From a virus, in IMG/VR virus record IMGVR_UViG_3300029853_000009: 58,930 nucleotides of DNA; one strand, written 5' to 3'. The position numbers and the translations under genes were made by a program. The notes under the pieces were generated by a model. That model was given only the letters and a program-made list of their open reading frames with translations. It was not told the DNA's origin and did no database searches. This document shows positions 1,267 through 10,077 of this stretch, piece by piece. Positions within the stretch are counted from its first letter, which is position 1. The number at the start of each line of letters is the position of its first letter.

Positions 1267-1993
1267 AAATAAACAAATATGATTAGGGTTTCCCCTTATT
1301 CTCCATAAGTACAGTCATATTCAGCCACCATGATGATAAGTCTGAGCGTTTGGGTGCGACCCTTAGCTTCTTACCACTGTCGAGCATGAGCAGGAATGAT
1401 ACCTGCAAATTTCACGGTTCTTTCAGGATTTTATATATGCAATATTATTCTTTTCCAAATTTGCCATACCGCTACTTTAACAAGTGTCTTGTGTTATACA
1501 TCAATTTCTTGATTTCAAGGCAAACTAGCTTAATTGAAGTTCCTATCTATTTCGTAGTCTTTCACACCACAAACATCAATAGGTTATTCTCGCACTACGA
1601 GCGTCTATTATTCACCAGCCACAAGCACCTTGCTTTTGACTTCTTTATGATGATACACCACACCACTCTGTTGACAACTTTGTCATCTTCTCTATCAAAA
1701 TCACTTTTAACAGAAAGCCTATTACTTTCCAGTATCCCGAAAAGTCTTTGACTCATTTCAGTGTGTCCTAGCAAGGCTGAAAGACCTATCTACACTAGGG
1801 TAATCATATTTGTTAAATGCTGGCATAGGGATTGAACCTATGTTTTAGCCTAAATCTAACCAGCCTTAATTGCATACATTATAGTGGGTATGCAAGCCAC
1901 TTTGCTTAGAATACAATAAGGGGGAATAAGGGGAGACTACTTCTAAGCATACAAAATACATTAAAGAATTAGGGGGATTTAAAAATCCCCAGC
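1267..1993 (-). ncRNA. ORF-free block between two tRNAs; candidate large structured ncRNA (ROOL/GOLLD-like class)
   Basis: No minus-strand ORF of 60 aa or more across ~0.7 kb in an otherwise gene-dense genome. Several strong hairpins (GCATAC...GTATGC, CTTAGAA...TTCTAAG, GGGGATTT..AAATCCCC). tRNA genes on both sides. Confidence 0.3.
1818..1867 (-). other. tRNA-like minihelix (acceptor-like stem, one hairpin, T arm); not a complete tRNA
   Basis: Minus sense AGGCTGG-TTAG ATTTAGG CTAA-AA-CATAGG TTCAATC CCTATG-CCAGCAT. The T loop is canonical and there is no D arm. Confidence 0.4.
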
Positions 1994-5356: not shown

Positions 5357-5457
5357 ATAACCATAGCAAAGAACAAAATAAAAAAGGCGGTTCGCCCCCA
5401 ACCAAGAAAAACGAACCGCCACCAATCAAAAAGAAAGGTAAGCCGATTATATCACAG

Positions 5458-5679
5458 TTGGCGAAATGGTGCAAGATTATGAGGTTTGAAAATTTATTCA
5501 ACACAATGCATTGTGATTTTTTTGAAATTCAAAAAAATGGGGAAATAGAAAAAATCGAATACGAAACTAGCGGCGTAATGTTAGCCGCTTCTAAGAGGTA
5601 CTTTGATTGTATAGTTAAAGATTTCTATATAATCAGGGCAAAAAATTCTAATGAGTTAGGATTAATGATTATATTATAA
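5458..5679 (+). CDS. Hypothetical protein (start uncertain)
   Basis: 73-aa ORF with an alternative start codon and a weak RBS. Confidence 0.35.
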   Translation: MAKWCKIMRFENLFNTMHCDFFEIQKNGEIEKIEYETSGVMLAASKRYFDCIVKDFYIIRAKNSNELGLMIIL

Positions 5680-5694
5680 AGAGGGGGCGGAAAT

Positions 5695-5859
5695 ATGAAA
5701 ATAGGGGACAAACTTGTTTACGGCTTTAATGATCGCAAACATTCTATAAAATGTACTTTTAAAAAGTACAAAATAACAAAAAGCGGAGAAGTTTTAATAT
5801 ATGCCGCTTCCCAAGGCGGCATGATTGTAGCACCTTGGGAAATGTTTAAAAAAGCATAG
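5695..5859 (+). CDS. Hypothetical 54-aa protein
   Basis: RBS GAGGGGGCGG; ATG at 5695 (MKIGDKLVYGFNDRKHSIKCTFKKYKITKSGEVLIYAASQGGMIVAPWEMFKKA), stop TAG at 5857-5859. Confidence 0.5.
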   Translation: MKIGDKLVYGFNDRKHSIKCTFKKYKITKSGEVLIYAASQGGMIVAPWEMFKKA

Positions 5860-7631: not shown

Positions 7632-9200
7632 TTACAAAAAATATCCTATCAAAATTCCTAACTCATTAGTATGTTTTGATTTACAGTCGTATTCTTTAAT
7701 ATCAGAATATAATTGTAATATTTTATCAGATTTGATTTTATAATTATATTTTAAGAACATTCTGTCTAGCTGCTTTAACATTACTGAAAGCTTAGATATC
7801 TTCAACATCTTATTTATTGAATCACGTTCATGGCCTTTGCATATACTTGAATAAAATCGGATTAATTTCCCAATATCAATCCAATATTTATCGTCAGCTT
7901 GATTTGTGATTGAATCATTGAAATACAAATCAAGAGATTGTACAAGATTTAACGCCAGTAAAGCCCTTGAAATAAAGCCATTATCAATTTGCTGGTAAAT
8001 GCAGCCAATACCTATTTTGTGCAATATTTCATTTATATTTCCACTATTATTAAATATCCAGTCGATAATATTATTTCTGTACATTATAAGATTGCATTTG
8101 ATATTCATATCTATATGTAATGTATCAATTTCGTTAAACATATTATATTTTAGATATTTATTAAAAAATACATTATCAATAATATCTAAAAATTCTTGCT
8201 TATTATTATAAACACTATAATATTGCTCATTCTTATCATCTTGCAGATATTTTTTTAATTCAAATGGCTTCTTAAGCTTATAATTATAATTAACTAAATT
8301 TGAATACTTAATAATTGCGGACAGATTATTCTGAATGAACAGCATGTATCCAGAAATATTGCACTGCGGCAACTCACCATTTTGGCATGAAATAATATTA
8401 TCTTTCCATGTATCAAAAAATATTAAATTTTTACCTTGAGTCGCATTTTTTAAAAAAAATTCAAACAATTCTCTCTGTCCTAATGCTTGTTCAATATCAA
8501 TCAACGTAGGAATAGAAAGCTTTCTCGTTCTGTGTTCTAAATAAGGTTTCTTTAAATTTAACACCATATTATCATTTGGCAACCCATAAATATTATCATT
8601 CATTTTTATATTAAAATCATTTTTTAAAAATATATTAGGGATTAAATATCTATTTTCTTCATTAATATATACTTCCTCATCGTCTTCAAAAAATATTTTG
8701 AGATAATTCTTTTTCTGCAAATTCACACCTAGTTTTTCCAAGCAGAAAATGTGGTCTTTAATCCATTTTTTATTCTTTTCAAGTCGAACTGTATTAATAT
8801 CGCCTGCGACTTTATACGCAAGTTCATACAATGTTTTTTCCGCTTTTTTGCAGTTCTCACCGGGATTAAGCAGTTTATTAAAATAATTGTCAATAATCTT
8901 CGCTGTCAACTTACCGCTATCAATATTTTCATATTTTACCCAAAATGACATATAATTATTAGAATGAATTATTTTCTTATTATCTTGAGCCTTATTCATA
9001 TTTATAAGACTACTATGATAATCATAAAAACAAATACTCTTATATAGTTTGTCGTTTTTATTTAATCTTGTGCCTTTCTTAAAAGAAACAAAATTAACAG
9101 TATCATCCTTATTTACAACAATATAATCCCCCACATCATGGATATCATGCACTATGTCCGGGGGATTTTTTTTAAATACTTTCATACATTCATCTATCAT
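7632..9200 (-). CDS. 522-aa ORFan of unknown function; very AT-rich, Asn/Lys/Ile-rich
   Basis: A long uninterrupted ORF whose composition clearly differs from the flanking phage genes. It is insulated by hairpins on both sides. I recognised no catalytic motif. Confidence 0.75.
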   Translation of the reverse strand: MIDECMKVFKKNPPDIVHDIHDVGDYIVVNKDDTVNFVSFKKGTRLNKNDKLYKSICFYDYHSSLINMNKAQDNKKIIHSNNYMSFWVKYENIDSGKLTAKIIDNYFNKLLNPGENCKKAEKTLYELAYKVAGDINTVRLEKNKKWIKDHIFCLEKLGVNLQKKNYLKIFFEDDEEVYINEENRYLIPNIFLKNDFNIKMNDNIYGLPNDNMVLNLKKPYLEHRTRKLSIPTLIDIEQALGQRELFEFFLKNATQGKNLIFFDTWKDNIISCQNGELPQCNISGYMLFIQNNLSAIIKYSNLVNYNYKLKKPFELKKYLQDDKNEQYYSVYNNKQEFLDIIDNVFFNKYLKYNMFNEIDTLHIDMNIKCNLIMYRNNIIDWIFNNSGNINEILHKIGIGCIYQQIDNGFISRALLALNLVQSLDLYFNDSITNQADDKYWIDIGKLIRFYSSICKGHERDSINKMLKISKLSVMLKQLDRMFLKYNYKIKSDKILQLYSDIKEYDCKSKHTNELGILIGYFL

Positions 9201-9272
9201 TTTTTCTCCAATTATTAAATAATTACTCTATAAAATGACCCCATGAGATATAAATAATCCTATAGGGTCATT

Positions 9273-9542
9273 TCAAATCAATTCATTTTCTTTTTCTAAC
9301 AGAATCAATAAAGCCGTCATAGACATTGTTCTTAGATATTCTCCATCTTCCAACTCTCTTTCTTTAATCGGAATATCATTTATAAAATCATAGTTGGTAT
9401 AAAGTTCGACACCCTTATATTTTTGGCACCATACACAAACAATCGTATCGCCACCAAATTCTGCAATATCACGTTTTAATTCTCCTATTAGCTCTGAACA
9501 TTCAAAACTAACGCTTTCCCCATTTTTATTTATAAACGCCAT
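9273..9542 (-). CDS. Hypothetical protein
   Basis: RBS TAGGAGT before the ATG at 9542 (MAFINKNGESVSF...). Confidence 0.55.
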   Translation of the reverse strand: MAFINKNGESVSFECSELIGELKRDIAEFGGDTIVCVWCQKYKGVELYTNYDFINDIPIKERELEDGEYLRTMSMTALLILLEKENELI

Positions 9543-9595
9543 AATTACTCCTATTTTATATATTTTATTTAGTATATCATAAAAATTTACATATT

Positions 9596-9748
9596 TCAAA
9601 TAATATTGTTAATGCTATTATTATTTGCTGTAAAAATAAGTGATTTGCTAGTGTAATCGTGCTGTTTAAGCTCATAAATCAACTTTTCTTTAGTCATCTC
9701 TGGATTAGTTTTCTGTATATATTCAAGCAATTCATCTAATTCACACAT
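9596..9748 (-). CDS. Hypothetical 50-aa protein
   Basis: ATG overlaps the upstream stop (TGATG); MCELDELLEYIQKTNPEMTKEKL... Confidence 0.4.
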   Translation of the reverse strand: MCELDELLEYIQKTNPEMTKEKLIYELKQHDYTSKSLIFTANNNSINNII

Positions 9749-10077
9749 CAAGATGCACTCTCACTTTCTTTCTTAATTCCTGCCATTAAATAATCCAACA
9801 AATAAATTAATTCTGAACCATAAAGGCTTATCCAGTCTGCCATAAATTCTTCCTGCTCTATAGGTATATGTATGCCGTAAGAAAAACAAAAACAGTGGCA
9901 CAGCTCATGTGCTATTATTTTACGCAAATAAGCCCCTTTTGGCTTGTTGGATACATATATAGTCTTGTCGTTCCAATCGGTCACAGCAAGGCTTATAGAG
10001 CCGTCAGAACGTGTCAAATTATTGTTTGTGCCGTGAACAAATTCAATTTTCCACTCAATACCATTTATCAAAAACAT
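9748..10077 (-). CDS. ImmA/IrrE-like zinc metallopeptidase
   Basis: HExxH motif (IIAHELCHCF) in a ~110-aa protein with an ImmA-like N-terminal pattern. Confidence 0.55.
   Translation of the reverse strand: MFLINGIEWKIEFVHGTNNNLTRSDGSISLAVTDWNDKTIYVSNKPKGAYLRKIIAHELCHCFCFSYGIHIPIEQEEFMADWISLYGSELIYLLDYLMAGIKKESESAS

Follow-up and report, generated by a model that had tools for sequence, protein, structure and literature searches.

ROOL is one of the few natural RNAs known to build a protein-free cage larger than the ribosome. The ROOLs of a cow-rumen metagenome, of E. faecalis and of a Firmicutes bacterium (CAG:227) assemble into RNA-only octameric cages about 28 nm across, that of L. salivarius forms a hexamer, and the complexes are stable at nanomolar concentrations (PMC12286853, PMC12515178, PMC12990946). 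As for the role of the cage, the literature consulted offers encapsulation hypotheses only. In terms of genomic setting, ROOL has been placed “nearby”, “often near” or “within” transfer RNA (tRNA) arrays, perhaps co-transcribed with them (PMC12286853, PMC12990946). Our literature search on ROOL and RNase P, which covered the ROOL structure papers only in part and may have missed a prior mention, returned no proposal of tRNA-type processing. Here we describe the ROOL locus in a stretch of viral DNA of 58,930 nucleotides (nt), IMG/VR record IMGVR_UViG_3300029853_000009, whose full length is called the window below. We are highly confident that this locus encodes a complete ROOL, which would form a cage like its homologues and would be cut from a tRNA-array transcript by the tRNA-processing enzymes of the host.

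The whole window was compared with Rfam 15. On the minus strand, ROOL (RF03087) matches from 1823 to 1265 over model positions 1-574 of 574, so that the match is not truncated, and reaches 362.6 bits, where the gathering score is 99.1 (E = 3.1e-83). It is the sole non-tRNA match at the gathering threshold, and 161 of the 191 highly conserved (upper-case) consensus positions are identical. The interval 1823-1265 (minus strand) encodes a complete ROOL RNA, an ordinary member of the family in a typical setting. The outer 6 and 2 nt of the match belong to a flanking tRNA-like element and to a tRNA-Ser, respectively. The predicted mature form therefore spans only 1267-1817 (minus strand), as placed by the Rfam match, the conserved positions, pairing and covariation. 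This is about 551 of the 727 nt in the gene-free block between the neighbouring tRNAs.

A first-pass annotation, made from the letters of the window, had proposed that the whole block is a large structured RNA of the ROOL or GOLLD type. The full-length match bears out ROOL; GOLLD found no match, and the hairpins listed at 1872-1990 lie outside ROOL. The phage setting beside tRNAs is common to GOLLD and could suggest another class of large RNA, be it GOLLD, a group I or II intron, transfer-messenger RNA (tmRNA) or an unknown class. We give this a negligible probability, since the Infernal search suggested in that annotation, run with all 4227 Rfam models over 1100-2200 on both strands at E<=10, returned only ROOL, the two tRNAs and three chance-level matches. 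The GOLLD, tmRNA and group I intron models had no match in the same interval on either strand at that threshold.

Among relatives, IMG/VR phage copies share 69-73% identity with the window ROOL, and one gut-metagenome contig reaches 98%. All 15 loci tested with Rfam are full-length ROOLs, again at 69-73% identity to the window copy. One locus, L118 (805-1898), is 98.4% identical to the window over 1,100 nt, with 21 differences.

In terms of secondary structure, 124 of the 153 model pairs are canonical as aligned by cmscan. This alignment is one base off in the closing helix P1 and in five other helices, so that raw mismatch counts overstate non-pairing, and after re-registration by +/-1 the count rises to 145 of 153. 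The 5' strand of P1 (1802-1816, minus strand) pairs with the 3' strand at 1270-1284 (minus strand) in a register set by hand from the Rfam alignment, where 14 of 16 pairs form at a shift of +1. G1 of tRNA-Ser (1266) comes 3 nt past the last P1 pair, after three U (1269-1267).

We also looked at covariation, a check that the first-pass annotation had named, in 36 distinct gut-phage homologues, with the Rfam structure projected onto the alignment and P1 re-registered. Standard pairs occupy 83.4% of the cells, compared to 34-46% in slid controls, with the 3' partners displaced by 1-3 columns. Changes on both sides are seen for 59 pairs, six of them in helix 1, and for 7-21 in the slid controls. 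None of 500 column shuffles reached the observed values of pairing and covariation. These figures come from about 4-5 clades only and from a structure projected from the window sequence. The poorly scoring helices are those with the register problem. The structure of the window ROOL is thus shown to be conserved and covarying, with stems that related phages keep through compensatory changes. A scan for non-nested covarying runs, which would indicate pseudoknots or kissing loops, gave too many candidates, dominated by phylogenetic noise from the few clades.

A loop of 47 nt (1420-1466, minus strand) takes the place of the long unpaired loop in the Rfam alignment and forms the variable linker, which differs in length and sequence among homologues (alignment columns about 372-440). 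The equivalent linker in the solved homologues is disordered and inside the cage (PMC12286853). Since the window ROOL is of the same family as the solved cages, the same monomer fold and RNA-only assembly are expected. By this analogy, we infer that the RNA of about 551 nt would fold into a flat multi-junction monomer and self-assemble without protein into a hollow homo-oligomeric cage, with the 47-nt linker presumably inside.

The covariation also bears on whether the block encodes a protein, to which we give next to no chance. A candidate open reading frame (ORF) of 133 amino acids (aa) at 1350-1751 on the plus strand is the only one of at least 60 aa between the tRNAs, and the L. salivarius ROOL was formerly annotated as the hypothetical protein LSL_1885 (PMC5643018). 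The plus-strand ORF is not conserved, however: across the 36 homologues, the longest open frame on the antisense strand measures anything from 68 to 154 aa, and the ORF has no Pfam match, in line with the doubt already cast on it in the first-pass annotation. The minus-strand ORFs measure 41, 59 and 31 aa, so none reaches 60 aa, as had been stated. The 31-aa one (1866-1961) is frameshifted by a 2-nt indel in L118. Substitutions in the block track base-pairing and not codons.

As for the layout of the locus, ARAGORN calls two tRNAs in the whole window and no more; both lie on the minus strand and flank the block as originally described. The first RNA in the direction of transcription is tRNA-Gln (anticodon UUG), at 1993-2063 on the minus strand by the Rfam tRNA model (63.3 bits) and at 1992-2063 by ARAGORN. 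The last is a class II tRNA-Ser (anticodon GCU), at 1184-1266 on the minus strand by Rfam (49.4 bits) and at 1183-1267 by ARAGORN (gct). The full order of this co-oriented cassette is tRNA-Gln, a spacer of 126 nt, a tRNA-like minihelix, ROOL and tRNA-Ser.

The minihelix (GGCUGGUUAGAUUUAGGCUAAAACAUAGGUUCAAUCCCUAUGCCAGCA) is 48 nt long, at 1865-1818 on the minus strand, directly 5' of P1. The first-pass annotation had seen a tRNA-like minihelix at 1818-1867, and the element is real, with both an acceptor-type stem and a T arm. The stem has 6 bp (1864-1859 with 1824-1819) and is present in the minimum-free-energy fold. It is followed by a small hairpin (UUAG-AUUUAGG-CUAA) and by a T arm (AUAGG-UUCAAUC-CCUAU, 1841-1825) with a stem of 5 bp and the canonical T-loop UUCAAUC. 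The unpaired A1818 stands in the position of the discriminator. The D arm and a proper anticodon arm are absent, with 19 nt in their place, and neither ARAGORN nor the Rfam tRNA model (E<=10) recognises the element as a tRNA. An acceptor stem stacked on a T arm is the module recognised by both RNase P and RNase Z.

At the same position, most close relatives carry a tRNA-Tyr of 92 nt, and others a tRNA-Glu or a tRNA with a UUA anticodon. The T arm of the minihelix is homologous to that of the tRNA-Tyr (local score 32, against 15.2 +/- 3.1 in shuffles). Both acceptor strands are replaced relative to tRNA-Tyr and are still paired, from GGGGAAG/CTTCCCC to GCUGGU/GCCAGC. A phage attachment site (attP) was considered as the origin of the tRNA fragment and rejected: the integrase gene is 13 kb distant, and neither acceptor strand is missing from the element. 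An exact-pattern scan for the minihelix in IMG/VR gave no match.

The joint between ROOL and its neighbours was surveyed in related loci, which are named below by handles such as L118. Two IUPAC patterns from conserved ROOL segments gave 78 IMG/VR loci, and a third pattern gave 9 genome contigs and 120 metagenome contigs. A BLAST search with 1100-2200 found only tRNA-Ser look-alikes among INPHARED phages and nothing among PLSDB plasmids, and an exact scan of the metagenome and genome contigs for a window-specific ROOL 21-mer had no match. The survey set consists of 122 distinct loci, each with a full-length ROOL and no less than 100 nt of flanking sequence; boundaries were taken from an nhmmer profile and tRNAs from ARAGORN. 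We defined a T arm as a stem of 5 nt with at least 4 pairs and a loop T[TG]C[AG]ANN.

Such a T arm ends at -2 to +1 of Rfam model position 1 in 112 of the 122 loci, against 0 of 122 shuffled controls. The upstream elements in these 112 include 86 tRNAs called by ARAGORN, with at least 15 anticodon types. The other 26, the window among them, are tRNA-like, with acceptor and T arms kept and the anticodon region deleted, expanded or carrying an insertion. That these uncalled elements are scars of tRNA 3' halves lacking the 5' acceptor strand was rejected, as the 5' strand is present. The CCA is encoded after the discriminator in none of the 112, and U occupies +1 in 108 of them and +2 in every one. 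On the 3' side, 61 of the 122 loci have a tRNA, in most cases Ser, no more than 5 nt from the ROOL end. A fixed butt-joint of ROOL to tRNAs or tRNA-like elements is thus shown for the clade of the window.

Four unrelated minihelices occupy the same position, in the window, in L142, in L006/L012 and in L035. L142 is the nearest distinct relative (82% ROOL identity), and its minihelix folds into acceptor stem, hairpin and T arm with z = -2.8. The minihelix of L035, which has a distant ROOL, reaches z = -3.0.

Locus anatomy leads us to infer that ROOL would be excised by RNase Z and RNase P, because of the fixed register, the missing CCA, the U that follows and the tRNA-Ser at the 3' end. Under this model, ROOL would be cut out of a longer transcript running from tRNA-Gln to tRNA-Ser. 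The ROOL 5' end, at about U1817, would come from a cut by RNase Z just behind the discriminator of the minihelix, which lacks CCA, and the 3' end, at about U1267, from a cut by RNase P at G1 of tRNA-Ser. This would place the mature ends 1-3 nt from P1. The minihelix would serve as the RNase P and RNase Z handle that sets the 5' end, and it appears to be kept for this purpose because only the acceptor/T-arm module survives in decayed upstream tRNAs. In Firmicutes, RNase Z cuts CCA-less precursors just past the discriminator (PMC8549757). For L. salivarius, where ROOL was described as an “lncRNA”, its 5' end as mapped by rapid amplification of cDNA ends (RACE) is 225-450 nt downstream of the promoter (Cousin et al. 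2017, PMC5643018), which indicates that ROOL is a processed RNA there too. For this clade of gut Clostridia phages, we lean slightly towards reading ROOL as a tRNA-punctuated RNA, in which a cage RNA with exact ends would be released by RNase Z and RNase P from a tRNA, or from a purpose-kept minihelix, fused to P1.

The same fixed register would equally suit a fused architecture, in which the minihelix is retained and the mature RNA is a chimera of minihelix and ROOL, perhaps with the tRNA as well, bearing tRNA-shaped arms outside the cage. According to the account of Ling et al. given in PMC12515178, the P1 ends point outward and 3' fusions, including one with a tRNA precursor, allow octamers. 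We still find the chimera quite improbable: the flanks at most loci are ordinary tRNAs (Met, Tyr, Trp, Ser and others) that must be released to function, an end that lacks CCA and runs on with U is what marks an RNase Z substrate, and P1 is where both the Rfam seed and the RNA mapped by RACE in L. salivarius end.

Excision at the two joints has a stronger competitor in a minihelix that is only a decayed tRNA, a recombination scar without a role; the spacer would then contain a promoter for ROOL, and the ends of ROOL would be set otherwise. The evidence for this, which in our judgement is unlikely, comes from several sides. The T arm clearly comes from the tRNA-Tyr of the relatives, and a terminator-like hairpin follows tRNA-Gln. 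Some further observations favour the scar and also weigh against excision: the minihelix fold alone is not significant (z = -1.4), a TATAAT that precedes the minihelix by 13 nt (1883-1878) could belong to a separate promoter, and some distant ROOLs show, in place of the tRNA joint, a promoter-like site and a longer P1. Also to be set against excision are the acceptor stem of 6 pairs and not 7, the 10 of 122 loci without a canonical T arm, and the ROOL of L. salivarius pMP118 (L208 2264-2806, 130 bits against the Rfam model), which has no tRNA or tRNA-like flank. This last case implies that the tRNA joint is limited to a clade and that maturation differs between clades.

On the other side, neutral decay would not replace both acceptor strands and leave them paired. 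Acceptor and T arms are kept in one register in four unrelated minihelices and in several tRNAs with a ruined anticodon region. Conservation points the same way. Compared to L118, the minihelix has 0 differences, against 10 (8%) in the adjoining spacer, where they include the 2-nt indel and a broken stem pair; ROOL has 6 (1.1%). Of the other differences, 4 are in tRNA-Gln and 1, at 2075, lies just upstream of it. In the tRNA-Gln of L118, one acceptor pair shows a compensatory change from U5-A66 to C5-G66, and another change breaks G3-C68. The TATAAT has no acceptable -35 element. A search for sigma-70 sites that could serve the cassette gave nothing convincing: it returned 9 sites where chance predicts 7.3, and not one of them is positioned upstream of the minihelix. 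In L142, only about 25 nt separate the minihelix from a different hairpin at the position equivalent to 1973-1990, too little for a separate promoter to fit.

The spacer itself (1866-1991, 126 nt) follows tRNA-Gln, is poorly conserved and was found by BLAST only in L118. The interval 1868-1995 (128 nt) folds into exactly three hairpins at -26.9 kcal/mol (z = -2.9), and 2 of 200 shuffles are as good. All three stems named in the first-pass annotation exist. The stem GGGGATTT/AAATCCCC is at 1973-1980/1983-1990, where it had been put, and the other two were one base off: CTTAGAA/TTCTAAG is at 1905-1911/1941-1947 and GCATAC/GTATGC at 1872-1877/1888-1893.

Directly after tRNA-Gln, the first hairpin (1973-1990, minus strand) reads GGGGAUUU-UU-AAAUCCCC and is followed by CUAAUUCUUU. 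It is the sole terminator-like site in 900-2700, where the chance expectation is 1.0, and one of its stem pairs is the one broken in L118. This hairpin is weakly terminator-like and is probably a leaky terminator or none. The rest of the spacer (1868-1972, minus strand) is lineage-specific, as judged by the fold and the comparison with L118, and holds the two other hairpins. The middle one pairs 1948-1940 with 1912-1904, and its loop holds CCCCUUAUU twice in tandem (1914-1933, minus strand). This repeat is probably not functional, because it is disrupted in the 98%-identical L118. The third pairs 1895-1888 with 1877-1870 and has the TATAAT in its loop.

In terms of the wider genome, nearly all genes of the window are on the minus strand. 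Genes for the large terminase, portal, major head, tape measure and integrase were assigned with PHROGs, and a Rha regulator with Pfam. The window is probably the complete genome, of about 59 kb, of a temperate siphovirus-like phage, because related contigs measure 57-59 kb. The same ROOL clade is present in human-gut genome contigs of Lachnospiraceae, Dorea, Roseburia, Ruminococcaceae and “Clostridium sp.”, and the relatives of the window are prophages of Lachnospiraceae and other Clostridia. An ORF of 522 aa at 7632-9200 (minus strand) matches nothing in PHROGs or Pfam, and part of it falls in the stretch of lowest GC content in the window (27.6%, 8001-10000). It may be a moron or accessory gene.

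Several related loci have unusual neighbours of their own. The “tRNA-Tyr(gta)” found ahead of ROOL in the closest clade (L004 4965-5056, about 14 distinct loci) is atypical, with 92 nt and the anticodon at position 39, and it scores only 39-41 bits in Rfam where listed (L001, L011). A tRNA with a UUA (“stop”) anticodon abuts ROOL in L010 (13282-13365), and in L112 and L175 the ARAGORN calls of “tRNA-Pyl(cta)” directly upstream of ROOL fall on tRNA-like elements with an expanded anticodon loop. These could be suppressor or decayed tRNAs. Eight loci (L184, L178, L188, L200, L149, L095, L197 and L169) have a tRNA about 150 nt upstream of ROOL and directly fused to it, with acceptor, D and T arms intact and an insertion of about 95 nt in the anticodon/variable region, which could be an intron or the mark of a degenerate tRNA.

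In L068, a tmRNA (5381-5722, 102 bits) lies 22 nt downstream of ROOL, so that the 3' neighbour is again a tRNA-like RNA. The tRNA arrays that carry a more distant ROOL clade also have the skipping-rope RNA (RF02924, 59-63 bits) between their tRNAs (L019 4296-4438, L043 1558-1697, L050 2126-2266 and L071 3696-3835). Finally, type II hammerhead ribozymes (RF02276, 49-68 bits) are present in several related ROOL-carrying phage contigs (L004 719-787, L007 13934-14002, L011 3872-3941, L013 3931-4000, L014 3992-4060 and 4763-4831), with none in the window.

The locus tells nothing new about the ROOL fold, and its modest added value lies in the minihelix and in the tRNA joint at the level of register. 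The proposed account of maturation is testable and would apply to the ends of ROOL in many phages. The predicted mature ends (about 1817 and about 1267) are useful for expression and structural work, and mutation of the minihelix acceptor stem would give a handle for knocking down ROOL with the neighbouring genes untouched. The account also links cage production to the phage tRNA arrays and narrows the hypotheses about function. A bolder version of tRNA punctuation would make the coupling obligatory, with cage production tied stoichiometrically to the tRNA output of the phage. If true, it would hint that tRNAs, or the machinery that processes them, are partners of the cage.

Among known systems, GOLLD is likewise a large, ornate, cage-forming phage RNA in tRNA arrays, and some GOLLDs carry a tRNA in their linker. 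Its sequence and structure are unrelated to those of the window ROOL, and it has no Rfam match in the window.

As for tRNA-shaped processing signals, in MALAT1/mascRNA, MEN-beta and the tRNA punctuation of mitochondria such an element recruits RNase P and RNase Z and defines the ends of the neighbouring RNA. These are functional analogies for the role proposed for 1818-1865 together with tRNA-Ser. They are eukaryotic or organellar and their cleavage is proven, whereas the element of the window lies 5' of the long RNA in a phage of a Firmicute host, with cleavage suggested by its anatomy. By this analogy, the 48-nt minihelix would be a bacterial or phage counterpart of the mascRNA-type processing handle of MALAT1. 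The minihelix substrates of RNase P and tRNase Z (mentioned in PMC3714273) have an acceptor stem coaxial with the T arm, which is also kept in the window; their stacked helix is of 7+5 bp, whereas that predicted here is of 6+5 bp.

The closest comparison is with ROOL itself. The solved nanocages, the env-120 octamer (9MDS), the E. faecalis octamer (9J3T) and the L. salivarius hexamer (9J6Y), are of the same family as the window ROOL. With the family as described (Weinberg et al. 2017, PMC5737381; RF03087), the window copy shares the multi-junction structure, the conserved nucleotides, the variable linker and the phage or prophage setting near tRNAs, at about 551 nt compared to a family mean of 581 nt. 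Nothing essential differs, and what sets the window apart is its 5' neighbour, a cut-down minihelix in the place of a tRNA.

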